Source: a bacterium
GTDB taxonomy: Bacteria; Babelota; Babeliae; Babelales; RVW-14
Reading direction: 5' to 3'
Assembly (NCBI GenBank): GCA_043822925.1
Contig: JBDRBF010000009.1
Location: 1 to 25,360, forward strand
DNA: 25,360 nt
Shown: positions 3,476 through 25,028 of the stretch, piece after piece
Numbering within the stretch: position 1 is the first letter of the stretch
Layout of the letters: each line of letters begins with the position of its first letter
Notes under the pieces: generated by a model
Seen by the model: the letters and a program-made list of their open reading frames with translations, nothing else
What the model was told of the DNA's origin: nothing
Databases searched by the model: none
Program-made: the position numbers and the translations under genes

Positions 3476-4332
3476 ATATCGAAATTTTTAAGTATGAATC
3501 GATTAGGCCATTTAAAATTTTGGGTCTGACGGGTGATTTTTGGACGATTCACATTGATACACTTATTTACACATGGGCAGCCATGGCTGTTTTATTGATC
3601 TTGTCTCTTATTGGCTGGCGGGCGATTAAAAATCGTGATATGAATTATAGTTTAGTTTCTGTTGAATCGGCTATTGGCTTTTTTATTGATTTATGCAAAG
3701 AATCTTTTCCTGTTTTTAACTATAATCATTTTGCTTTTATTCTTTCGCTCTTTTATTTCACGCTTGCATGCTGCTTGATTGGGTTAATCCCAGGGCTTGA
3801 TGAGGCGACAAAAGATTTGAATACAACGCTTGCTATCGGCCTGACGAGTTTTATTTATGTTCAATATGAAATCATAAAAGCTCACGGTGTTTTTGGTTTT
3901 TTAAAAGATCTTGCGCAGCCGTTTTTATTATTAATGCCAGTTAACATTGTTGGAGAGCTTTCGCGTATCGCTTCTATGTCGTTTCGACTTTTTGGTAATA
4001 TTTTAGGTGGTTCGATTATATTTTCTATGATGGTTAATGTATTTGAAAATTTTGCTCTTTATTTTATTTTTTATGTAATAGCCGTGCTAATTTTTTCTTG
4101 GTTTACTGAAAAATATAATTTGTTTTCGCGTTATAAAAAAATACGTGCAGCTATTAAATGGAGCGTAGCGGCAGTTTATTTGTTGCCGTTTGCGCAAATG
4201 TTTTTTGGTATTTTTGAGGGAGTTATACAAGCATTTGTGCTTACCATGCTTACGACCGTGTATCTTTCTATGGGGCTTGGTAGTCATGATAGTACTGAGC
4301 ATGCTGTTAAACATGAACATGAGGAAATCTAA
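3472..4332 (+). CDS. atpB: F-type ATP synthase subunit a
   Basis: PVNIVGELSRIASMSFRLFGNILGG (essential Arg), ATKDLNTTLA, FEGVIQAFVLTMLTTVYL. Confidence 0.96.
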   Translation: MNIEIFKYESIRPFKILGLTGDFWTIHIDTLIYTWAAMAVLLILSLIGWRAIKNRDMNYSLVSVESAIGFFIDLCKESFPVFNYNHFAFILSLFYFTLACCLIGLIPGLDEATKDLNTTLAIGLTSFIYVQYEIIKAHGVFGFLKDLAQPFLLLMPVNIVGELSRIASMSFRLFGNILGGSIIFSMMVNVFENFALYFIFYVIAVLIFSWFTEKYNLFSRYKKIRAAIKWSVAAVYLLPFAQMFFGIFEGVIQAFVLTMLTTVYLSMGLGSHDSTEHAVKHEHEEI

Positions 4333-5285
4333 TGAATTTGCCTGTTTTTCTCCATTATTTTTCTGCTGCTTTGGCTATGATGCTCGGCGTTGTTGGTGGC
4401 GGGCTTGCCCAGGGCATAGCGGGGTTGAGTACGCTTGAAGCCATGGAACGGCAACCTACTGGCGGTGATAGTTTATTTAAGTCGCTTATTATCGGGCTGG
4501 CTTTAATAGAAAGTGGTTTAATTATAGCGCTTGTTATGTCTCTCATGGTTCTTTTTAGCGTGCAAGAGCCTACTATGGCGAGTGCTTTGTGCGAATTGGG
4601 CATGGGGCTTGCTATTGGTACTGCAGCTGCAAGCATTAGTATAGCATCAAGTTTTGTGGTGAGAGCAGCGACATTTGCGATATCCAGGCAACCATTTTTT
4701 GCGCAAAAAATTATTACAATTATGTTACTTACGCAGTCAATTATTGAAGCCCCAGTTATTTTTGCTTTTATTGTTTCTCTTTTAATTAAAATGAATATAT
4801 CACCATCTATGACCGTGTATGAAAGTTTGCGTTATTTTGCAGCTGCTTTAGCGGTTGCTCTTGGTAGCATTGGGCCGTCTATAGGCCAAGGGATTTTTGC
4901 AAACGCGGCGTGTTCGTCAATCGGTCTTAATAAACGTGCATATGAAAAAGTTTTCCCATTTACGCTTGTTACTCAAGCGGTTATCGAAACGCCCATGATA
5001 TTTTCTATGTTGGTTTCGCTTTTAATTATTTATTCGCATATTATTCTTCTGGATTTTTCTCAGGGGATAATACTTATAACAGCTGCTGCTACAATTGGGT
5101 TTGGAGCTTTGGGCTCAGCAGCTGGAATCGGCTTTGCTGCGTCTAAAAGTTGTTATCAAATAGCGAGTGAGCCGGCAAATTATGGGCCTATTTTTAGAGC
5201 TACATTGCTTGTTTTGGCATTTATTGAGTCTATGGTTATTTATGCGTTAATTATTGCGATGCTTTTGATTAAACAAGCGTCTTGA
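4332..5285 (+). CDS. atpE: ATP synthase subunit c with four tandem c hairpins (317 aa, ~8 TM)
   Basis: Four ~80-aa units, each with a small-residue inner helix and the conserved Glu (E60, E139, E219, E299). RQP loops in units 1 and 2. TAATG overlap with atpB. Confidence 0.93.
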   Translation: MNLPVFLHYFSAALAMMLGVVGGGLAQGIAGLSTLEAMERQPTGGDSLFKSLIIGLALIESGLIIALVMSLMVLFSVQEPTMASALCELGMGLAIGTAAASISIASSFVVRAATFAISRQPFFAQKIITIMLLTQSIIEAPVIFAFIVSLLIKMNISPSMTVYESLRYFAAALAVALGSIGPSIGQGIFANAACSSIGLNKRAYEKVFPFTLVTQAVIETPMIFSMLVSLLIIYSHIILLDFSQGIILITAAATIGFGALGSAAGIGFAASKSCYQIASEPANYGPIFRATLLVLAFIESMVIYALIIAMLLIKQAS

Positions 5286-13655: not shown

Positions 13656-15203
13656 ATGTTGTTTGTAAAACGTTTATTAACGTTATTTTTGTTTTGTGTT
13701 TTTGTTCTGAGCTCGTCCTTTATTTCAGCAACGTATACAACATTGAGTGAGTGGACGCTTGCTAATCAGCAGGGCAAGTTTTCTGGTCAAAATTCTGTTT
13801 TGACAGCAAATGAATTTTTAGACGTGCTTGAAAATTGTCGCAGAGCTATAAGAGAGCGAGTATTTGATAAACCTGATCTTTGGCTCAAGAATAATACCCC
13901 AACAAATAGCTTTTTTCAGGCTGATTTAAATAATGAATGTTATCTGCAGAAGCTGGTTGTTGATCCAGGATCTAAAATTTGTTTTATGGGTGATATTCAT
14001 GGAAGCGTCGATTCGTTATTACATAATTTAAATAAATTGGCATCAAATAATTATATCGCCGATAATTTTAAAATTATAAACGATAACTTTTATATGATTT
14101 TTCTTGGTGATTATATTGACCGAGGTGTTTGTGGCGTTGAGGTTTTGTCTATTCTTAGTTTATTAAAAATAGCTAATCCGGATACGGTCTTTTTACTTCG
14201 TGGGAATCATGAAGAACCTTGGCAAGTGGGTACTTTTGAGAAAGAGCTTGAGGCTAAATTTAAATGGCAGGATCAGGATGTTCAAAAAGCTGTTCTTGAA
14301 ACAGCTAAATGCTTTCCTGCTGCGATATTTCTTAAGTCCGGTACAAATTTTGCGCAATGTTGTCATGGTGGGATTGAACTATGGTATTCGCCATGTGATT
14401 TTATGGCATCAGATAAAATGTTTGAACGGTATATAAAACATAAAGAGATTTTTCGTGAAAAAGAGTGTCTGTTTGAGTTCGGTTTTATATGGTCTGATTT
14501 TGATTTTCTTGGTAAAGAAGATCGTGAATATCAAAAGTCTTATGAATTTAGTGTTCGTGGTGGGAACGCGCTTATTTTTCATAGAGAAAAAACTAAAAAA
14601 TATTTAGCGAAAAATAGTACGCCAGAGAACAGGTTTGTGGCTTTTTTTAGAGGGCATCAGCACGCTTTTTTTGGTCTAAAAATGTTTAATGAGCATCATA
14701 AAAATATAGGAAGTTTGGGTTTTCGAGCTCATTGGGAGAATATTGTTTCGGAAGAAGATGTACGCAATAAAGAAATTTCTATTGCTGCGTATCATCCAGT
14801 GTTTACTTTTTCAACTGCAGCGGGTGTTTCATCATGCTATCAGCCGTACGATTGTTATGGGATTTTGACGGTAGAAAAAGAGTATGAAAACTGGACATTA
14901 AAAGTGCATGAAGAAATGCGTACTAAAATTAGAAAATCAGATTTAAAGTTTGAAAAAAAAACTGTAAAACCAGGTATTAAAAAAGTTGATACGCTTTATG
15001 ATTTTGAGTTTAACCAAGATCTTGAAGAAGAAGGCGAAGAAGCAATAACTCTTGAAGAAGCAATAAAAAATGTAGGAGAATCGCCTGATAATTGTATGTT
15101 TGAAGATGTGCAATTGGAAGATGTGCAATTGGTGGATGTTTCTTTTGAACCTTTTAATGTCAATAAACAAGAAAGAGATATTTCTTGTTGTCATATTTTG
15201 TAA
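13656..15203 (+). CDS. Secreted PPP-family Ser/Thr phosphatase paralog 1, C-terminal CaaX box
   Basis: Signal peptide; GDIHG, GDYIDRG, LRGNHE, HGG, WSD, RG, RGHQ, VFTFSTA; acidic tail ending SCCHIL*. Confidence 0.9.
   Translation: MLFVKRLLTLFLFCVFVLSSSFISATYTTLSEWTLANQQGKFSGQNSVLTANEFLDVLENCRRAIRERVFDKPDLWLKNNTPTNSFFQADLNNECYLQKLVVDPGSKICFMGDIHGSVDSLLHNLNKLASNNYIADNFKIINDNFYMIFLGDYIDRGVCGVEVLSILSLLKIANPDTVFLLRGNHEEPWQVGTFEKELEAKFKWQDQDVQKAVLETAKCFPAAIFLKSGTNFAQCCHGGIELWYSPCDFMASDKMFERYIKHKEIFREKECLFEFGFIWSDFDFLGKEDREYQKSYEFSVRGGNALIFHREKTKKYLAKNSTPENRFVAFFRGHQHAFFGLKMFNEHHKNIGSLGFRAHWENIVSEEDVRNKEISIAAYHPVFTFSTAAGVSSCYQPYDCYGILTVEKEYENWTLKVHEEMRTKIRKSDLKFEKKTVKPGIKKVDTLYDFEFNQDLEEEGEEAITLEEAIKNVGESPDNCMFEDVQLEDVQLVDVSFEPFNVNKQERDISCCHIL
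15102..15131 (+). repeat. 15-bp tandem duplication (EDVQL x2) in the paralog 1 tail
   Basis: GAAGATGTGCAATTG twice in tandem. Confidence 0.9.
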
Positions 15204-15242: not shown

Positions 15243-17042
15243 ATGTTAATTGTTCGCTTAGAATCTAAAATTTTTCAAATTTTTTCTGTGCTTGTATTTT
15301 GTTTAAGTTTGTCTGTTGTTCAGGCTATGCAGCAGGATGGAGTACAACAATTTATAGAACCTAAAATGCCAACGTTAACCGAGTGGACAAGTCGGTGCTT
15401 TGCCGAGCTGCCTGAGTATACAGAAGAATATAAAACGGTTTTGACTAGTCTTGATTTTTTGTATGTTATTAAAAAATGTAGAAATATGTATCAAGAGACT
15501 GCTTTTGGTAATAAAGAAAACTGGCGTGATGGTGCAGCTCCAGATAACGGTTTTTTTGAAGATGTAGCGTCAGAAGAGAGTTTTTTTTCTGTTTGGGACT
15601 GTGCGCAAAAGTATAAAGCGCCGGTAGGGAGCACCCCTGTTTTTATTGGTGATATTCATGGCTGCGTGCATGCTTTGTTAAGAGATTTGTGGGGGCTTGT
15701 TGCCGATAAAAAGCTCGACAATAATTTTAAGTTAGCGCCTGGTGTTACGATTGTCTGTTTGGGTGATTATATTGACCGTGGTAAATATAGTGCCGAAGTT
15801 TTGTATACACTTTGTTTGTTAAAAATGGCAAATTTTGATCAGGTGTTTTTGTTACGTGGTAATCATGAAACTTTCGGCTATTTTGATGGCCCCTCTGGAT
15901 TTGGAGATGAGTTAAAAAATAAGTTTAAACTAGAAGAAGATCAATTGAATTTTGTTTTTAATTTTATACTAAAACTTGTGCGTTGTTTCCCTCTGGTATT
16001 GTTTTTTGAATCGGGGGATAGCGTTATTCAGTGTTCTCATGGTGGAATATGTTCGGGTTATGACCCTGTAGATTTGCTGCATGCGCCGGATACAAAAATA
16101 TTTGAACGAATCAAGCCGGTAGGGGCTAGTGCCAATTCTGAACAATTTTCAGCTGAGATGAAAAAAAATAAAAATTGGGCAGGACATTTTTTTGGGGTAG
16201 ATTTTACCGGAAAAGATTATAAGGATGGCGTTGTTCTTGGTTCTCGTGGTTTAGTCTACGGTAGGAATGGCGTTAACGAATATCGAGAGAGAATCAATAA
16301 ATCTTTAAAAGAGGCAGGGCTTAAGCTCAGGCTTGAAGGATTTTTTCGTGGGCATGAGCATGCTTGTTTTGGTTTAAAGATGCTTGAGACGAAAAATGGA
16401 GAGCGGGGGGCAGGAGCTCTTCAAGCTAATTTGTGGCAAATGCATTGGAAACAAATTGTTTCTCTTGAAGAAATAGTAAATACTGAAATTCTTATTCATA
16501 AATATTATCCTGTGTTTACTTTTTCTACCGCTTCTGGAACGCCTCTATGTGGGCAACCATATGATTGTTATGGCGTTTTGACGACAGCCCAAAAGTGGGA
16601 AGATTGGAAACTTAAAGTGTATGAAGGCAAAACCCCGCTTAATGAAAATTTCAAAGTTGAAAGAGAAAAGATAGATGGGAAAGTTATTGAAAAATCTATT
16701 TTTAAAAATGAAAAATATGTAGAAATTGATACGAAAGACGGCTTTGTTTTTAGTAACCAGTGTTCTGGAATGGCAATTGATGTGCGTTGGGTTGATAAAA
16801 AAGATAAGCGTACGCCAATTGGTGATGCGCTTATTAAGTTTGTTCAAGAGCTAAAGTACCCATCAGAAGTTATTGAAAAAGAAGAGAAGCATCAAGACAA
16901 AATAGAAATTGTTCTTGAATTAGATGAATCAGGCAATAAAAATAGTAGGTCAAAGAGAAAACGAGAAGAGACTAAAGAAAAAGAAGATGGTCGGGAATGT
17001 GACTCAGGTCAATCTTTCTCTAAGCGAGCCAAAAAAGAGTAA
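15243..17042 (+). CDS. Secreted PPP-family phosphatase paralog 2, basic NLS-like C-terminus
   Basis: Signal peptide ending VQA; GDIHG, GDYIDRG, RGNHE, HGG, RGHE, VFTFSTASG; tail SKRKR...SKRAKKE*. Confidence 0.9.
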   Translation: MLIVRLESKIFQIFSVLVFCLSLSVVQAMQQDGVQQFIEPKMPTLTEWTSRCFAELPEYTEEYKTVLTSLDFLYVIKKCRNMYQETAFGNKENWRDGAAPDNGFFEDVASEESFFSVWDCAQKYKAPVGSTPVFIGDIHGCVHALLRDLWGLVADKKLDNNFKLAPGVTIVCLGDYIDRGKYSAEVLYTLCLLKMANFDQVFLLRGNHETFGYFDGPSGFGDELKNKFKLEEDQLNFVFNFILKLVRCFPLVLFFESGDSVIQCSHGGICSGYDPVDLLHAPDTKIFERIKPVGASANSEQFSAEMKKNKNWAGHFFGVDFTGKDYKDGVVLGSRGLVYGRNGVNEYRERINKSLKEAGLKLRLEGFFRGHEHACFGLKMLETKNGERGAGALQANLWQMHWKQIVSLEEIVNTEILIHKYYPVFTFSTASGTPLCGQPYDCYGVLTTAQKWEDWKLKVYEGKTPLNENFKVEREKIDGKVIEKSIFKNEKYVEIDTKDGFVFSNQCSGMAIDVRWVDKKDKRTPIGDALIKFVQELKYPSEVIEKEEKHQDKIEIVLELDESGNKNSRSKRKREETKEKEDGRECDSGQSFSKRAKKE

Positions 17043-17063: not shown

Positions 17064-17176
17064 TATATAGGGCCCTTAATTTTACTGGTAAAACGGTGAG
17101 ATTAAGGGCTTTTTTGTATATATATATATATATATTATTGCGTTTTTTTGTGTTGGTTTGATATCGTGTTTAATAA
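17064..17176 (+). repeat. Intergenic module copy 1: terminator-like hairpin + (TA)9 + promoter-like tail
   Basis: GCCCTTAATTTTACTG-GTAAAA-CGGTGAGATTAAGGGC then T6, (TA)9, TTATTGCGTTTTTTTGTGTTGG...ATATCGT..TTAATAA; also at 21154 and 23111. Confidence 0.93.
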
Positions 17177-17230
17177 GATTTTTTTGAGTTGGAATTCGAT
17201 GTGTTTTGTTGTAGAGAGGGAGTGTGTGAG

Positions 17231-20200
17231 ATGTTGCGAGTAAAGTTGATGGAGAATGTGGTTAAAATTTTTTTAGTGCAAGCGTTTGTTTTTTGTGTGG
17301 GAAATTTGTGGGCGATGCAGGGCTTGGATGTTGTGGTTACTGGCACGAAGTTATCTGAGTTTAAAATCCCAACGACGCTTATCAAATGGACAAATAAGTG
17401 CTTTAGGGAGCTTCCTGATAATTCAACCGCTTATAAAAAATTTTTAGAAGCAAAAGAACTTTTTGATGTACTTGAAGCGTGTCGAGATAAATATAAAAAC
17501 AGTGATTTTAAAAATCCAGAGAAGTGGCTTGACGGGAAAGCACCAACTAATGAGTTTTTTCCTGAGGTAAAGTTTGAATCTTCGGGGGCACCACCAAGGA
17601 TTGTGCAATCATGGGATTGTGTACAAAAGCTTGAGGTTCCAGCTGGGAGCCAGAATTGTTTTGTTGGGGATATTCATGGGAGCTTGCATGCTCTTTTGCG
17701 AATTTTGTGGGGACTTGTTGCCGACGGCATACTTGATGACAATTTTAGAATAGTTAAGCCTAATTTTTATATTGTTTTTTTGGGAGACTACGTTGACCGC
17801 GGTAAGTATGGCGCTGAAGTTTTGTATACGCTTTGTTTGCTAAAATTGGCTAACTGGGACCAGGTATTTTTATTGCGCGGCAATCATGAGTATGAGGGGC
17901 TTTGGCCTCGGTATGGTTTTGATGATGAGTTGGAATATAAATTTGATTCATATTACGGTAAAATTTCTTTATGTATAACAAATTTAGAGCGCTGTTTGCC
18001 ATTGGCTTTGCTTCTTAAGTCAGGAAAAGATGAGAGCGCTGTGCAATGTTGCCATGGCGGCATAAAGCCTGATTATGTTCCAAAGCGTTTACTTAACGAC
18101 AAAACGAAAACATTTGAAAAAGTGAGTGGTCATGATTCTGAAAATATAAACTCAATGGGAGAACTTTCTTGGGCCGGAAATTTTAATTGGACAGATTTTT
18201 TTCAGACAGATTATGGTAAAGATGGTTTTTCTTATTTAGGTGGGCGTGGAAATCAATATTATGCTAATGGTGTTAAAAAATATTTAGAAGAAAATGGTCA
18301 AGGAATTAAGGCTTTTTTTCGTGGGCATCAGCATTACAAATATGGCTTAAAGCTTCCAGACGATGATAGCCACTGGGTTGAAGTTATTAAAGATAAAGCC
18401 AGTAAAAAAGACAACCTACTTAAAATAGAAGAAATTACGAAGAAAGTTCCGCCGGTTTTCACGTTTTCTACTGCTTCAGGAGCGTCTGATTGCAAACAAC
18501 CATATGATTGTTACGGGATTTTGACGACAGCTGACGGATGGGCGGGATGGACGTTAAAGGTTTATGAGGGCCTGACGCCTAAAGAGAAAGAGAATAAGTT
18601 TGTCAAGATTGATTTAAAGGGGGCTGGAATATTTACTGGTGGGGTACAAGATACGTTATTGGCTGCTCCTGATAAAGAAGAACCTACAAGTATAAAAATT
18701 GCTGCGTGTTGGAGCGATAAACCCGATCAGGAGCCTGTTGGAAAAACTCTTTTAGAGAAGGCAAAACTTGTGGTTCAACCGGTCCAACAACTGGTGAACC
18801 CTGTGTTGCAGCAACCAGAACCAGTAAAGCTCGTGGTTCAACCGGTCCAACAAATAGGAGTTGCTCCGCCAAAAGATATAAAAGATTTTGAGGGAACAGA
18901 TGTTGAAGACAACACTCCTCTGCATAAAGTTGCTCAGATCGGGCGTTTAGACGTTGTTACGTATCTAGTAGAGAATAAAGATGACATTAAAGCAAAAGAT
19001 AAATTTGGTTTGACTCCTCTGCATAAAGCTGCTCAGAACGGGCATTTAGGCGTTGTTGAGTATTTAGTAGAGAATAAAGATGACATTAAAGCAATAACTA
19101 CGGTGAATTATACCCCTTTGCATTTAGCTGCTCAGAACGGGCATTTAGGCGTTGTTGAGTATTTAGTAGGTAAAGGCGCTGGCATTAATGCAATAACTAC
19201 GATGAAAAATACCCCTTTGCATTTAGCTGCTCAGAACGGGCATTTAGGCGTTGTTAAGTTTTTAATCGAAAAAGACGCTGACATTAAGGCGAAAAATAAT
19301 AGTGGAAATACCCCTTTGCATAAGGCTGTTGCGAAAATAACAGATACAGGTAAAGATAAAGGACCTGCTAGCTTAGATGTTGTTAAGTATTTAGTAGAGA
19401 AGAAGGCTAATATTAATGCAAAAAATGTACAGGGTGTGATTCCTTTGCATTATGCGGCTGGATATGGAACTTTAGAAGTTGTTGAGTATTTAGCAGGTAA
19501 AAGCGTTGAAATTGATGCAAAAGATGGAAAAGGTTTTACTCCTTTGCATTATGCGGCTACTACGGGAACTTTAGATGTTGTTAAGTATTTAGTAGAGAAG
19601 AAGGCTAATATTAATGCAAAAAATAGAGAGGATTCTACTCCTTTGCATTGTGCGGCTAAAAAGGGCTTTTTAGAGATTGTTGAGTTTTTAGTAAAGAAAG
19701 GCGCTGACATTACAGTAAAAGATAAAATGGGTTCTACTCCTTTGTCTTGTGCGGCTGATTTGAACGTTCCTATAGAAGAAAAAGAGAAGATTCTTTCGGC
19801 TTTGATGAAAAATTGTAACGACTTAAGTCTTCTATTTAAGGCTGTTTTTTACGGTGAGTTGAAAGCTGTTAAGTTTTTTGTGAATGAAAAAAAGATGGAC
19901 GTTAATGAAAAAAATCAGGGCAAATATACCCCTTTGCATTTAGCTGCTGAGAACGGGTATTTAGATATTGTTAAGTTTTTAATCGAAAAAGGCGCTAGCA
20001 TTAATGAGAAAGATAATAGTGGAAATACCCCTTTGCATAAGGCTGTTGCGAGAATAACAGATACAGGTAAAGATAAAGGACCTGCTAGCTTAGATGTTGT
20101 TAAGTATTTAGTAGATAAAGGCGCTGACATTAATGCGAAAGATAATAGTGGAGATACACCTTTGCATTTAGCTGCTAAGAACGGGGATTTAGATGTTGTT

Positions 20201-21118
20201 AAGTTTTTAATCGAAAAATCTGCTACGATTGAGGCGGAGAATAATAAAAAAAGAACGCCTTTATTTCTTGCTGTTAAAGCCAATAAATCGGAAATTGTTA
20301 ATTTTTTGACAGAAAACGGTGCTAACGTTTATGCACCAGATGAGGATGGTCTGACCCCTTTTCTTGTGGCTTTAAATCAGAACAAATTGCCCACGATTAA
20401 GCTTTTAGTAAACAAAAATAATATTAATAAGGATATAAAAGACGGATATACCCCTTTGCATGTTGCTGCTTTTCAAGGGATAGATGTTGTTAAGTATTTA
20501 GTAGGAAATGGCGCTGGCATTAATGCAAAAGATAACATAGATCGTACTCCTTTGCATTGTGCGGCTGGATATGGAACTTTAGATGTTGTTAAGTATTTAG
20601 TAGAAAAGAGCGCTGACATCGATGCAAAGACTAAAGAGGATAAGACTCCTTTGGATTATGCGAAGGATGAAAATAATAATGAAAATCTTAACTATTTGGT
20701 TGAAGAGAAAAAGCGTAGAGATTTACAGGCTAGGAGCGTTTCACTAGCGAAGTTTAAAGAAGAGTTGGAGAAGCAAGAGAAAGAGGAATTGGAGAAATTA
20801 AAAAAGCGCAAGGCGAGCATTGGAGATAAAATCGAAAGAGATCAAATCGAAATTGGGAAGCAGCCAATGTCTAGAATAGGCGTGGCTGATGTTGAAAAAG
20901 TGGGCATTGAAGAGCCAATAACGATAAGAAAGCCGCTTGAGCAAGATACGCAGAAAGAGGTAGTGATAGCTAGAGTACCCTTTTATAACGTAGCTTTTGC
21001 TGATCCGGTAGTTGAAAACGTTAAGAAGTTACAGGCTGCATTGGAAGGGCTTAAGGCTAAGTTGGTTAACCTGAGTAAGAGTTTGGCCTTGGTGCGTGCG
21101 AAGTTAGGTGGGAAGTGA
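17231..21118 (+). CDS. Secreted PPP-family phosphatase paralog 3 fused to ~18 ankyrin repeats and a C-terminal coiled coil
   Basis: ATG 17231 with GAGGGAG SD; signal peptide ending LWA; GDIHG, GDYVDRG, RGNHE, HGG, WTD, RGHQ; TPLH-AA-G-L-VV-YL repeats; terminal leucine heptads. Confidence 0.92.
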   Translation: MLRVKLMENVVKIFLVQAFVFCVGNLWAMQGLDVVVTGTKLSEFKIPTTLIKWTNKCFRELPDNSTAYKKFLEAKELFDVLEACRDKYKNSDFKNPEKWLDGKAPTNEFFPEVKFESSGAPPRIVQSWDCVQKLEVPAGSQNCFVGDIHGSLHALLRILWGLVADGILDDNFRIVKPNFYIVFLGDYVDRGKYGAEVLYTLCLLKLANWDQVFLLRGNHEYEGLWPRYGFDDELEYKFDSYYGKISLCITNLERCLPLALLLKSGKDESAVQCCHGGIKPDYVPKRLLNDKTKTFEKVSGHDSENINSMGELSWAGNFNWTDFFQTDYGKDGFSYLGGRGNQYYANGVKKYLEENGQGIKAFFRGHQHYKYGLKLPDDDSHWVEVIKDKASKKDNLLKIEEITKKVPPVFTFSTASGASDCKQPYDCYGILTTADGWAGWTLKVYEGLTPKEKENKFVKIDLKGAGIFTGGVQDTLLAAPDKEEPTSIKIAACWSDKPDQEPVGKTLLEKAKLVVQPVQQLVNPVLQQPEPVKLVVQPVQQIGVAPPKDIKDFEGTDVEDNTPLHKVAQIGRLDVVTYLVENKDDIKAKDKFGLTPLHKAAQNGHLGVVEYLVENKDDIKAITTVNYTPLHLAAQNGHLGVVEYLVGKGAGINAITTMKNTPLHLAAQNGHLGVVKFLIEKDADIKAKNNSGNTPLHKAVAKITDTGKDKGPASLDVVKYLVEKKANINAKNVQGVIPLHYAAGYGTLEVVEYLAGKSVEIDAKDGKGFTPLHYAATTGTLDVVKYLVEKKANINAKNREDSTPLHCAAKKGFLEIVEFLVKKGADITVKDKMGSTPLSCAADLNVPIEEKEKILSALMKNCNDLSLLFKAVFYGELKAVKFFVNEKKMDVNEKNQGKYTPLHLAAENGYLDIVKFLIEKGASINEKDNSGNTPLHKAVARITDTGKDKGPASLDVVKYLVDKGADINAKDNSGDTPLHLAAKNGDLDVVKFLIEKSATIEAENNKKRTPLFLAVKANKSEIVNFLTENGANVYAPDEDGLTPFLVALNQNKLPTIKLLVNKNNINKDIKDGYTPLHVAAFQGIDVVKYLVGNGAGINAKDNIDRTPLHCAAGYGTLDVVKYLVEKSADIDAKTKEDKTPLDYAKDENNNENLNYLVEEKKRRDLQARSVSLAKFKEELEKQEKEELEKLKKRKASIGDKIERDQIEIGKQPMSRIGVADVEKVGIEEPITIRKPLEQDTQKEVVIARVPFYNVAFADPVVENVKKLQAALEGLKAKLVNLSKSLALVRAKLGGK
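18911..20706 (+). repeat. Ankyrin repeat array (~18 units, mostly 33 aa/99 bp)
   Basis: Recurrent TPLHxAAxxGxLxVVxYLVxxxAxINAK units with near-identical DNA between several of them. Confidence 0.95.
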
Positions 21119-21153
21119 GCGCTTGTTAATGTGTAGTGTATTGGATTAGTGAG

Positions 21154-21270
21154 TATATAGGGCCCTTAATTTTACTGGTAAAACGGTGAGATTAAGGGCT
21201 TTTTTGTATATATATATATATATATATATTATTGCGTTTTTTTGTGTTGGGTCTATATCGTACTTAATAA
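21154..21270 (+). repeat. Intergenic module copy 2: hairpin + (TA)11 + promoter-like tail
   Basis: Hairpin and T6 identical to copy 1; the TA tract is 4 nt longer. Confidence 0.93.
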
Positions 21271-21314
21271 CGTGTTCTTAAAATTGGTGACTTGGGAATT
21301 AATGAGGAGTTGTT

Positions 21315-22994
21315 ATGGAGCTTCAGATTTATAGTTCTCGAAATATGTGCTGGATAAAATTACGCATGTTGTTTGTTCTTGTGTTTTTAGGTTGCGTATT
21401 ATTTTCTCAAAGTAATTTGTTTGCCGAATATAGTTTGAACGAAGAGAGTATCTCTGTGAAGGGCTATCCCTCCAAAGATGAAAAGAGGGTTTTTAAAATA
21501 TATGAAGATGCACTTATGGCAGCATATGAAGACGCTCTTAAAAAGAGCGAATCTGGTGGTGAAGTTCCCAAAAAAGTTAAAGCTATAAAAAAAGATTGGT
21601 TCTTTTTTCACAAGTTGGATGAAAAAGAGAATGATTTGTCAGAGGATTATTGGCTTAAAGGTAACGAAAAGTCGCAATTTCTTAAAGATTTTCTTGTGAC
21701 AGCTTGGTCTGGGTTAACTATTGGTGAGAGTGGGCCTGCTCTTTTTGCAAACATAAATAAGGGGTACTATCCTCATATGATTGGGTTTAATGCTGATCAT
21801 GGATCATTTGAAACAGGTTGTGGCAAGATATGGACAGATGCTGAAAAAGTGAATCCTTTTTATGCAAAAGCATTATCTACCTTTATTAAAGAACTTGAGG
21901 TGAACTTGATAAAAGAATACAGTTTGCTTACGTCAGAAGAGTTAGAAAAAATGCATCAAGAGGCATTGAGAGGTGTGGCATGCAAATATAAGATTCATCT
22001 TCAGGTAGATCCGGAATATCTTATTTCTTTTGTTGAAGACTTATGTGTATTTTTTGTGCAAGATCCACAAGCTTATTTGATTCCTTTTTTTAAAGTATCG
22101 TCAGATCCTTTTTTGCCGAGCAGAACTAGGACTGAAGATCCGGTTCCAATGATTGTTTTATATGTTTGTTCTATTCCTGGCGATGCGGCAGAAAAACATA
22201 AAATTTTAAATCCACTTGTGCATGCAATTGTTGAGCGGTATAAAAATGTTGCGCAAGAGATTTCTCTCAAGAGAAGCGATGGGTCTTGTGTTCGGCCACG
22301 GTTTAATAGTAGGGTTTTTGAGGGGAATGATCTTGTGTGGATTGCTGGTGGAAATGCTGATGACAAAATAATATATAGGGCCCTTTTAAAGCCAAAAGAC
22401 GAAAACATTTTGCTTAGCCGTCTTGAATTTGTTTATGGAGAACTTAGTGTGCGTGGGCTTATTTCGCCAGGACTTGATGATGATATAAAAAATAGAGGGA
22501 TATCTCGTTGGAATGAATTAAAGAGCTTCCAAGAAGTTTTTGATAAAACACATTCTGATAATGATAAAAAAGTTCTTAAAGAAGCGTTTAAAATAAAAAC
22601 GGGTATCGATTTTGATCAGGTAGAAAGATTTAAAAAAATTCATGTGTTACTCAAAGAATTAACGGGTAAAATAAGCGATGATGAGAAGACTAAAATTAAA
22701 GAGCGGCTTGAAGCCGAATTGGGGAATAGTTTAGAAGAAGAATATAAAAAAATATACTTGCCAGAAAATACGGTTTATACGGATGATTATTCTTTTTTTA
22801 AGGGCTATGAATTTAAGTATGATCCTAAAGAAGAAGAGGGTAAATCTATTAATTTTGTAGCTGCTAAAAAAGAAGACGTGCTTGTTGTTAAAAATAATCA
22901 GGCTCCTGTTTCTCGTGAGTTTGGCGTGCTTGGCAGATTGCAAAGCACGTGCAAAAGAGTTTGGGTTGCGTGTGCAAAGTATTTTGTAAAATAA
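21315..22994 (+). CDS. Secreted protein with a putative phosphothreonine-lyase/HopA1-like domain
   Basis: GAGGAG SD; signal peptide ending LFA; YKIHLQV...FFKVS...R...MIVLYV...PRFN pattern. The ORF is solid, but the function is inferred from motif spacing only. Confidence 0.6.
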   Translation: MELQIYSSRNMCWIKLRMLFVLVFLGCVLFSQSNLFAEYSLNEESISVKGYPSKDEKRVFKIYEDALMAAYEDALKKSESGGEVPKKVKAIKKDWFFFHKLDEKENDLSEDYWLKGNEKSQFLKDFLVTAWSGLTIGESGPALFANINKGYYPHMIGFNADHGSFETGCGKIWTDAEKVNPFYAKALSTFIKELEVNLIKEYSLLTSEELEKMHQEALRGVACKYKIHLQVDPEYLISFVEDLCVFFVQDPQAYLIPFFKVSSDPFLPSRTRTEDPVPMIVLYVCSIPGDAAEKHKILNPLVHAIVERYKNVAQEISLKRSDGSCVRPRFNSRVFEGNDLVWIAGGNADDKIIYRALLKPKDENILLSRLEFVYGELSVRGLISPGLDDDIKNRGISRWNELKSFQEVFDKTHSDNDKKVLKEAFKIKTGIDFDQVERFKKIHVLLKELTGKISDDEKTKIKERLEAELGNSLEEEYKKIYLPENTVYTDDYSFFKGYEFKYDPKEEEGKSINFVAAKKEDVLVVKNNQAPVSREFGVLGRLQSTCKRVWVACAKYFVK

Positions 22995-22997
22995 AGA

Positions 22998-23108
22998 CTG
23001 GATTCTGAAATGTGCCTACGCTCTTGCATGGCTTTGGCGCGGCAGGCAAGCTCCTAGGCTTCGCACAAAGCTTCGCCGGGCACGCAGGATGACATTGTTC
23101 AGGATGAC
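22998..23108. repeat. GC-rich REP-like mosaic
   Basis: CTGGATTCTGAAA...GCCTACGCT...GGCAGGC...GCTTCGC x2...CAGGATGAC x2; much more GC-rich than its flanks. Confidence 0.5.
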
Positions 23109-23110
23109 AA

Positions 23111-23214
23111 ATAGAGCCCTTAATTTTACTGGTAAAACGGTGAGATTAAGGGCTTTATAATTTTATGTTATATTATTGCGTTTTTTTGTGTTGGGTCGAT
23201 ATCGTACTTAATAA
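23111..23214 (+). repeat. Intergenic module copy 3: same hairpin, degenerate TA tract
   Basis: Hairpin at 23116-23153 identical to copies 1-2; U-tract shortened and TA tract replaced by ATAATTTTATGTTATA; the TTATTGCG...ATATCGTACTTAATAA tail is kept. Confidence 0.9.
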
Positions 23215-23272
23215 GATGCTTATTGGGTACTCTAAATATATTAAGTGTTTTTTACGATATCGAGGGTGTGTG

Positions 23273-24803
23273 ATGTTTGTTTTAAAGCGTATTAAGTTTG
23301 CCGGAATACTCTTTGTGTTAGGTTTTATTTTTTGTGTATCAAGTTTATGGGCGACAAAAGAAGCTGTTATTTCGCTCGATAAATCTGTTGTACAAAAAGA
23401 TGTTGTGCAACCAGTATCTGAGCCTCAATTATTAAGTAAGACACCTACGTTATTTGAGTTGTCACGCAAATGTTTTGATGAGTTACCTGAAAAAACGGAT
23501 AAGTATAAAACTATTTTGTCGGCAGATGAATTAAAAAAAAACGCTTGAAGATTGTCAGAAAAAATATCAAGAAAGTGCGTTTGGAAAAGCTGAGAATTGG
23601 CTTGATGGTTTAGCCCCAGATTTAGCGGCTTTTCCATCAGATAAAGCGTGGGACTGTGTGCAAAAGTGTGAATTTACAGAAAAGCGTGAATTTTGTGTTA
23701 TTGGGGATCTGCATGGTAGTGTACATGCTCTTTTGAGAATATTATTGAATCTAGGTGTAGAAGAAAAGCTTTATGATTTTAAGATTATTAAAGACAATTT
23801 TTATATTGTATTTCTGGGGGACTATGTTGACCGTGGTAATTATGGCGCTGAAGTTTTGTATACGTTGTGTTTGTTAAAGATGGCCAATTGGGACCGGGTA
23901 TTTTTATTGCGTGGAAACCATGAGTATTTGTCGGCATGGAATGATTATGGTTTTTTGCAAACGGTACTAGGAGTTTTAGAAGATAAAATTACGGGTAAAA
24001 AGAGAATTCTAAGAGAGTCAGGTGAGTTGAAGACAAAATTTGAATCATATGGTAATAAGAACACAGTTGCTGAGATTGTAGCAGCTGCGATAAAATTGGT
24101 ACGTTGTTTCCCGCTTGCATTATTTATTAAATCAAAAGCAACGTATAACGGTTTTTGGGATTGGCTTACCGGACCAGGCGATAGTGTTGTTCTGTGTACT
24201 CATGGTGGTTTTGTTGCCAATTATTCTCCAAGAAAACTACTTAATGCGCCAAAAGAAATATATGAACATATTCCGGCTCTTGGGCATAAGCAAGATGGTG
24301 ATTCTGAGAGTTCGAGTGTTTTATTACAAAAAGATTGGGCCGGCAGTTTTAACTGGAGTGATTTTGATTATAAAGATGGCGATCTTAATTTTAATCGAGC
24401 ACGGGGTCTTGGTTTAATATTTCATAAAGATATGACGTTAAAATATCTAAGAAGTAATAAAATTAATGCAGTTTTACGTGGGCATGAGCATTGTGATTTT
24501 GGATTAAAAATGCTTGGTAAAGCTGGTGGTGAAGATAGTAAGGGTCTTGTTCTTGAAACTAGAAAACAAGCACATTGGACAGATATTGTTCCTGAGAGCC
24601 AGCGAGTAAATAATGAAATTCTTGTTTATAAATATTATCCGGTATTTACATTTTCTGCGGCGTCTGGGGCTCCTTCATGTTTCCAGCCCTATGATTGTTA
24701 TGGCATTTTGACGACGGCAAAAAAATGGCAAGACTGGAGCTTAAAAGTGAGCGAAGTAGTGGCTACCAATTCAAGAGAGGTAAAATCGAGAGGGCGTGTT
24801 TAG
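23273..24803 (+). pseudogene. Secreted PPP-family phosphatase paralog 4, split by one extra base in an A9 run
   Basis: ATG 23273 with GAGGG SD and signal peptide. Removing one A at 23533-23541 joins ORFs 23165-23548 and 23658-24803 into 509 aa. GDLHG, GDYVDRG, RGNHE, HGG, WSD, RGHE are all intact. Confidence 0.85.
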
Positions 24804-24822
24804 GCGGGACCGGTTACTTAAA

Positions 24823-24851
24823 TTGACAGATTGTAAGTAAATGGGTAATTT
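24823..24851 (+). promoter_or_regulatory. Candidate sigma70 promoter
   Basis: TTGACA-N17-TAATTT; the -35 is flanked by the dyad TTACTTA-N13-TAAGTAA (24814-24840). Confidence 0.45.
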
Positions 24852-25028
24852 GCTGCTTGGTTGGCGTGGCGCGAGATTGAAGTTTGTTGCTCTGTGGGTG
24901 TTTTTGTGCTACATTTGCTTTTGTAATTCCTGTTACGAGTACTTGAATAGGTGGTTCGGAACCTGAAAAAAAGTTTAGGGAAAAGGCGTTTTTTTAGGGG
25001 AAATTATTTTCTTTAATTTGGGGGGTCT

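Follow-up and report, generated by a model that had tools for sequence, protein, structure and literature searches.

The gene P0001 lies at 21315–22994 on the plus strand of the window analysed here, 25,360 nucleotides (nt) of contig JBDRBF010000009.1 (positions 1–25,360; assembly GCA_043822925.1, phylum Babelota). Its product is probably an effector enzyme exported by Sec, from the phospho-Ser/Thr lyase superfamily that comprises OspF/SpvC, HopA1/LanY and the lyase domains of LanKC/LanL, a reading to which we assign a probability of about 60%. Phosphothreonine lyases are described in two settings in the excerpts of the papers cited below, as type III secretion system (T3SS) effectors of proteobacterial pathogens and as dehydratase modules of lanthipeptide pathways. 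The sequence-only reading of this DNA had proposed an OspF/SpvC-type lyase lying among phosphatase genes and exported by Sec, and most of it stood, apart from one arginine and the supposed partnership with the phosphatases. The source genome (1.52 Mb, 86 contigs, 92.5% complete) belongs to a small-genome bacterium that probably infects protists, and the protein is laid out as follows.

21315–22994, plus strand: lyase-fold gene P0001, 559 amino acids (aa), from the list of open reading frames (ORFs) and its translation
21315–21425, plus strand: Sec-type signal-peptide-like leader, residues 1–37, from a heuristic reading of the sequence; cleavage site putative
21582–22394, plus strand: main part of the predicted lyase-fold domain, residues ~90–360
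21990–21998, plus strand: K226-I-H228 in strand 225–229, on SpvC K104 and H106 (hhalign, conservation, model)
22092–22094, plus strand: K260 in strand 258–262, on SpvC K136 (hhalign, conservation, model)
22161–22163, plus strand: Y283 in strand 280–283, on SpvC Y158 (hhalign, conservation, model)
22296–22367, plus strand: family-specific conserved block P328-R329-x-N331 ... IAGG ... K351, with candidate residues for phosphate binding (conservation)
22401–22766, plus strand: helical insertion, residues ~363–484, five helices in the AlphaFold model, gapped against P0003
22767–22829, plus strand: C-terminal element closing the fold, motif YTDD..FFKGYE (conservation, structural alignments)

AlphaFold, given the family alignment as input, modelled P0001 with a mean predicted local distance difference test score (pLDDT) of 75, rising above 90 across most of residues 200–360, and a Foldseek search of this model against the PDB returned VirA, SpvC, OspF, HopA1 or ThurKC at every rank from 1 to 12 (best E 0.028, probability 0.99). 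The source genome contains a second family copy on contig C58, a compact protein of 331 aa lacking the helical insertion, whose model (pLDDT 89, predicted template modelling score 0.85) gave lyases at all of ranks 1–16 (best E 1.3e-3). In the ESM Atlas, a separate and poor model of P0001 had clusters of HopA1, RamC_N and OspF as its neighbours. The ranks of both models together with the ESM Atlas neighbours therefore identify the predicted fold as the phospho-Ser/Thr lyase fold, and homology of fold with these lyases is very likely on the basis of the models; the fold suggested earlier from the letters was thus recovered by structure prediction. The best structural scores were obtained with CuvL (12.4) and ThurKC (11.0 and 10.3), SalKC and LxmY were also among the nearest solved folds, and as modelled the overall fold of P0001 resembles HopA1 and the lyase domains of lanthipeptide enzymes more than it resembles SpvC/OspF. 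An eIF4E-like cap-binding fold was considered and dropped on the gap in Z score. Against SpvC, the structural alignments extend to model residue 503–505 at the SpvC C-terminus, beyond the helical insertion, which is missing from the compact paralog (P0003) and most relatives, is present in P0002 and, judging by length, probably also occurs in 511–530-aa open frames of two genomes of the same family (G124 and G125). Residues 358–486 retrieved only unrelated helical proteins from the ESM Atlas, with no informative structural neighbour.

Four catalytic residues of SpvC could be placed on P0001 without prior input of the register. The SpvC numbering used in the sequence-only reading (K104, H106, K136, R148 and Y158) agreed with SpvC translated from plasmid pSLT, and the five residues were invariant across 31 aligned SpvC/OspF relatives, so that the SpvC spacings of 32, 12 and 22 are correct. 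On the P0001 side, K226 (nt 21990), H228 (nt 21996), K260 (nt 22092), R272 (nt 22128) and Y283 (nt 22161) lay where they had been put, with spacings of 34 (K226–K260), 12 (K260–R272) and 23 (K260–Y283), in the contexts KIHLQ, FKVS and VLYV as written, followed by PRFN from residue 328 (nt 22296) and LVWIAGG from residue 340 (nt 22332). Alignment of the 69-sequence family profile with the 31-sequence SpvC/OspF profile by hhalign (E 7.9e-4, 98 columns, probability 24.7%) brought K226, H228, K260 and Y283 onto K104, H106, K136 and Y158 of SpvC, pairing KIHLQV with KFHISV, FKV with WKV and VLYV with TLYI. A repeat with default settings scored 32.8, compared with 17.6 for a reversed SpvC profile and with a mean of 14.2 (sd 2.4, maximum 20.3) for 23 column-shuffled profiles, none of which reached the real score; by these profile controls, the match in register exceeds chance. 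In the AlphaFold model, K226/H228, K260 and Y283 occupy three successive predicted strands.

These four residues, whose conservation had been named as a point on which the lyase proposal could fall, were also nearly invariant in the family: K226, H228 and K260 were each kept in 67 of 68 sequences and Y283 in 67 of 69. A second group of conserved positions comprised P328 (61/66), R329 (60/66), N331 (55/66), G346 (56/66) and K351 (65/66), and a third, near the C-terminus, F494 (59/67), G497 (57/65) and E499 (54/64). By contrast, the proposed equivalence of R272 to SpvC R148 did not survive, as its column favours no one residue (V, E and T, six each of 67) and R148 aligned to T273.

Excerpts of the SpvC literature describe K136 as the base and H106 as the acid, with K104 and Y158 activating the alpha-proton (PMC2843593); they further assign K104 to enolate stabilisation and phosphate binding and H106 to general acid catalysis (PMC2843593, PMC10604976), have R148, R213 and R220 hold the phosphate together with K104, and let D201 participate in acid/base catalysis (PMC10604976). 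By analogy with SpvC, K260 of P0001 would take the alpha-proton of a phosphoserine or phosphothreonine, K226 and Y283 would polarise the backbone carbonyl and H228 would protonate the departing phosphate, leaving a dehydro-amino acid that could not be rephosphorylated. The phosphate itself would probably be held by R329 and K351, which, judged by their conservation, are candidates for this function only. The substrates would most likely be phosphoproteins of the protist host.

Searched exhaustively with phmmer, 1.84 billion representatives yielded 68 proteins at E ≤ 1e-3, 39 of them at E ≤ 1e-10, a list that counts the query and the second copy of the same genome; a word-index homolog search yielded one relative only. 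The core common to the relatives spans residues ~200–360, and the resulting family alignment has 69 rows, in which the paralog is present twice (P0003 and P0032). Neither Pfam (E ≤ 1) nor NCBIfam matched P0001, and PF03536 had no match in the whole source genome at E ≤ 10; P0001 founds a divergent sequence family that the Pfam and NCBIfam models do not see. Across the phylum, the family profile matched 51 of 261 genomes, 38 of the 189 high-quality ones, and 34 of 145 genera, all family-bearing genomes falling in one order with a patchy spread and up to five matches per genome. Six loci were found in named species genomes, labelled Candidatus Dependentiae, Candidatus Babeliales, 'uncultured Pseudomonadota' (three) and 'bacterium', which suggests that the bacterium of the window is itself one of the Dependentiae. 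Two members are fusions: P0006 (738 aa) carries a C-terminal Exo_endo_phos domain (E 8.3e-15) after its lyase-like domain, and P0045 (723 aa) an N-terminal WD40 propeller (E 5.1e-30) before it. A Pkinase or LANC_like domain was found within none of the 69 proteins.

P0001 begins with a leader in which a basic IKLR segment precedes a 13-residue hydrophobic core, MLFVLVFLGCVLF, and a short polar segment, SQSNLFA, which ends in A and is followed by EY. Its highest 12-residue Kyte-Doolittle mean was 3.19, starting at residue 19, and a crude hydrophobicity test assigned a Sec-like leader to 34 of the 69 members and to 30 of the 56 with an initial M. The 92.5%-complete source genome gave no match to the T3SS marker FHIPEP (SctV/FlhA), which was matched in four control genomes, and none to the type IV secretion system (T4SS) marker VirB4, which bears out the earlier proposal of a Sec-type signal in place of T3SS export. 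The genome does encode three secretins, which could take folded periplasmic proteins outward. For Chromulinavorax, a cultured member of the Dependentiae, an excerpt of its description reports signal peptides on 44% of coding sequences and 98 ankyrin proteins, and proposes Sec as the export route (PMC6561590).

The 92.5%-complete genome, which has no match for a Hanks-type Ser/Thr kinase (Pkinase, PF00069), carries genes for several secreted Ser/Thr phosphatases and for two proteins of the lyase fold, a combination that points to host phosphoproteins as the substrates. Three genes of the APH family lie on contigs C18, C37 and C47, adjoining neither family member, and a genome search for LANC_like gave no match but was equally silent in the control genomes and is thus without weight. 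Given the leaders, the patchy multi-copy spread, the fusions to WD40 and Exo_endo_phos domains and the eukaryote-like neighbours described below, we favour an effector-like function for the family.

P0001 differs from each known branch of the superfamily in a different way. With OspF/SpvC/VirA/HopAI1 (VRP3, PF03536), the P0001 family has in common the predicted fold and the equivalents of K104, H106, K136 and Y158, but it has no PF03536 match and does not retain R148, and P0001 carries a Sec leader, a large N-terminal extension and a helical insertion of 120 residues, in a genome of another phylum with no T3SS marker found. The fold is likewise common to HopA1/LanY (PF17914; LxmY, CaoY), whose Pfam model has no match in the P0001 family. 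According to an excerpt of PMC9486802, LanY lyases have no equivalents of K104 and H106, with Arg replacing Lys, whereas the P0001 family retains K-x-H and has no LanK-type kinase partner adjoining it at the nine loci scanned. The lyase domains of LanKC/LanL (RamC_N, PF25816) share both the fold and the K-x-H, K and Y set, and ThurKC activity requires K65, H67 and K94, as described in an excerpt of PMC10604976. However, these domains belong to larger proteins that also contain a kinase and a cyclase, and they act in the cytoplasm on a leader-bound peptide, whereas P0001 is stand-alone and bears a signal peptide, without a PF25816 match or a Pkinase match in its genome. Since K-x-H is retained, unlike in LanY, the chemistry of the family would be OspF/LanKC-like; its modelled overall shape is HopA1/LanKC-like.

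Several results weigh against an exported lyase effector. None of the 69 members matched PF03536 (VRP3), PF17914 (HopA1) or PF25816 (RamC_N) at E ≤ 0.1, and neither phmmer with P0001 nor hmmsearch with the family profile found anything relevant among PDB sequences; matches at E > 0.05 to ribosomal protein eS1, TyrRS and a kinase fragment were noise. Foldseek gave no match at E ≤ 0.001 with either the P0001 or the paralog model, the profile-profile probability in hhalign was no higher than the 24.7% given above, and the family profile aligned to the single SpvC sequence in the wrong register and insignificantly. The phosphate half of the SpvC site (R148, D201, R213 and R220) has no established counterpart by alignment, as hhalign of the C-terminal halves was not significant (E 0.36) and placed none for D201, R213 or R220. 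The leader would deliver P0001 to the periplasm only, with passage onward to the host a further, conjectural step. Finally, HopA1, one of the two closest folds, is listed in a review table with EDS1 as its binding target and with no biochemical activity (PMC5091034).

A chance resemblance, in which a generic curved alpha/beta sheet as in eIF4E bears a coincidental K-x-H...K...Y, is highly improbable. A lyase-fold protein without elimination activity that acts by binding a host protein, as proposed for HopA1 and EDS1, deserves more weight and is still unlikely: the near-invariance of four residues of SpvC/LanKC chemistry (67 of 68–69) is hard to explain without catalysis, and LanY lyases without K-x-H are still active in the excerpt of PMC9486802, which implies that the remainder of the site can vary within this fold. 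About equally unlikely, in our judgement, is an enzyme that does eliminate or otherwise handle phosphate but acts on something other than a host phosphoprotein, namely a phospho-compound of the bacterium's own periplasm or envelope or a small phospho-metabolite derived from the host. Such an enzyme would suit a protein whose sole visible export signal is a Sec leader into the periplasm, in a genome where T3SS and T4SS markers were not found, and whose phosphate-binding residues are unlike those of SpvC; with no Hanks kinase match, moreover, the usual source of the bacterium's own phosphoproteins is missing. On the other hand, the characterised fold members in the excerpts of the cited papers all act on phosphoserine or phosphothreonine in peptides or proteins (PMC2843593, PMC10604976, PMC9486802), the patchy multi-copy spread, eukaryote-like neighbours and fusions resemble those of host-directed effectors, and the three secretins could move folded periplasmic proteins out of the cell.

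With CuvL, ThurKC, SalKC and LxmY among the nearest solved folds, P0001 might also be the dehydrating component of a pathway to lanthipeptides or thioamitides, resembling LanY or LanKC, but this alternative is hardly credible here. A kinase, a cyclase and a small precursor gene adjoin the lyase gene neither in this window nor at nine other loci, the genome has no Pkinase match and its APH genes are on other contigs, and P0001 has a signal peptide although the enzymes that build ribosomally synthesised and post-translationally modified peptides are cytoplasmic. We retain the Sec-exported phospho-Ser/Thr lyase effector as the preferred reading of P0001.

Extending this reading to the bacteria concerned, we tentatively propose, at somewhat less than even odds, that Dependentiae-type parasites of protists export their own ancient lyase branch via Sec without an injection machine, combining a HopA1/LanKC fold with the K-x-H/K/Y chemistry of OspF and irreversibly erasing host phosphorylation alongside eukaryote-like PPP phosphatases. 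If true, this would add a third, sequence-unrecognisable branch, Sec-exported, multi-copy and present in about one-fifth of the genomes sampled from a protist-parasitic phylum, and so widen the reach of irreversible dephosphorylation. Beta-eliminating 'phospho-erasers' would then be a general weapon of intracellular bacteria, beyond proteobacterial T3SS pathogens and peptide-antibiotic pathways, and the branch could represent the stock that gave rise to the lyases of both. It would likewise offer a first mechanistic handle on host takeover by these uncultured bacteria and natural variants with which to examine how the lyase fold can remodel its phosphate pocket. A literature search of full text, with subscription journals and supplements outside its scope, found no work linking Dependentiae with phosphothreonine lyase, OspF or HopA1. 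The 69-sequence alignment can serve databases as a seed for this family, which is now annotated as hypothetical.

The gene model of P0001 was corroborated by independent DNA. A GAGGAG at 21303–21308 lies 6 nt 5′ of its ATG, and contigs from a groundwater metagenome span 21100–24900 at no less than 99% identity. The lyase gene itself is free of indels and shows two single-letter differences (21365 and 22542); two further DNA runs cover this interval in part. In one RNA run, the sole contig was 290 nt at 23739–24025 and none lay on the lyase gene, which indicates neither expression nor silence.

In the window, the lyase gene sits among four PPP-type Metallophos genes (13656–15203, 15243–17042, 17189–21118 and 23658–24803), whose translations contain GDxHG, GDxVDRG and GNHE, which we take to be the PPP motifs. 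These tandem eukaryote-like phosphatases have Sec-like leaders on at least two members, and one of them, of 1309 aa, is fused to a long ankyrin-repeat array (14 stretches by Pfam Ank). The earlier suggestion that the lyase complements the phosphatases is confined to this locus, since none of 68 neighbouring ORFs scanned at nine homologous loci was Metallophos, kinase or LanC. The loci in other genomes were retrieved with a 14-sequence alignment, and the scan covered the nearest 36 of 75 ORFs at five of the six named loci (L008 was omitted, as its ORF layout repeats that of L006) and 32 of 62 ORFs at four loci of the same family. The neighbours elsewhere include RING-finger, cyclin, PLA2_B and ankyrin proteins; thus at L006 (3482–4537) and L007 (609–1298, 1654–2247 and 6214–8283), eukaryote-like genes for RING fingers, a cyclin and a cPLA2-like lysophospholipase adjoin relatives of P0001.

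Two terminator-like hairpins of identical sequence bracket the lyase gene.

21162–21199, plus strand: 38-nt hairpin 5′ of the lyase gene, at the end of the ankyrin-phosphatase gene
23116–23153, plus strand: identical 38-nt hairpin 3′ of the lyase gene

A third exact copy lies at 17072–17109, so that the hairpins end three consecutive genes, and no copy occurs elsewhere in the 1.52-Mb genome. Each has a stem of about 19–20 pairs followed by T-rich or TA-repeat sequence, and the ~110 nt beyond the hairpin are near-identical 5′ of the ankyrin-phosphatase gene and 5′ of the lyase gene. To judge by its sequence, the repeat looks like a duplicated terminator-promoter cassette, suggesting shared regulation or a recent duplication of the cassette.

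The fourth PPP phosphatase is encoded in two pieces, an N-terminal ORF with the leader (23165–23548) and a catalytic ORF (23658–24803) in another frame, and the split falls at a run of nine A (23531–23541). The contigs of all three covering DNA runs have one letter fewer at 23533, which joins both ORFs in frame; therefore, the split reflects either a mistake in the assembly or variation by strain or phase. Elsewhere in the window, the ATP synthase c-subunit gene at 4332–5285 encodes 317 aa with four ATP-synt_C stretches, suggesting from the sequence a fused multi-hairpin form of the subunit rather than the usual single hairpin.
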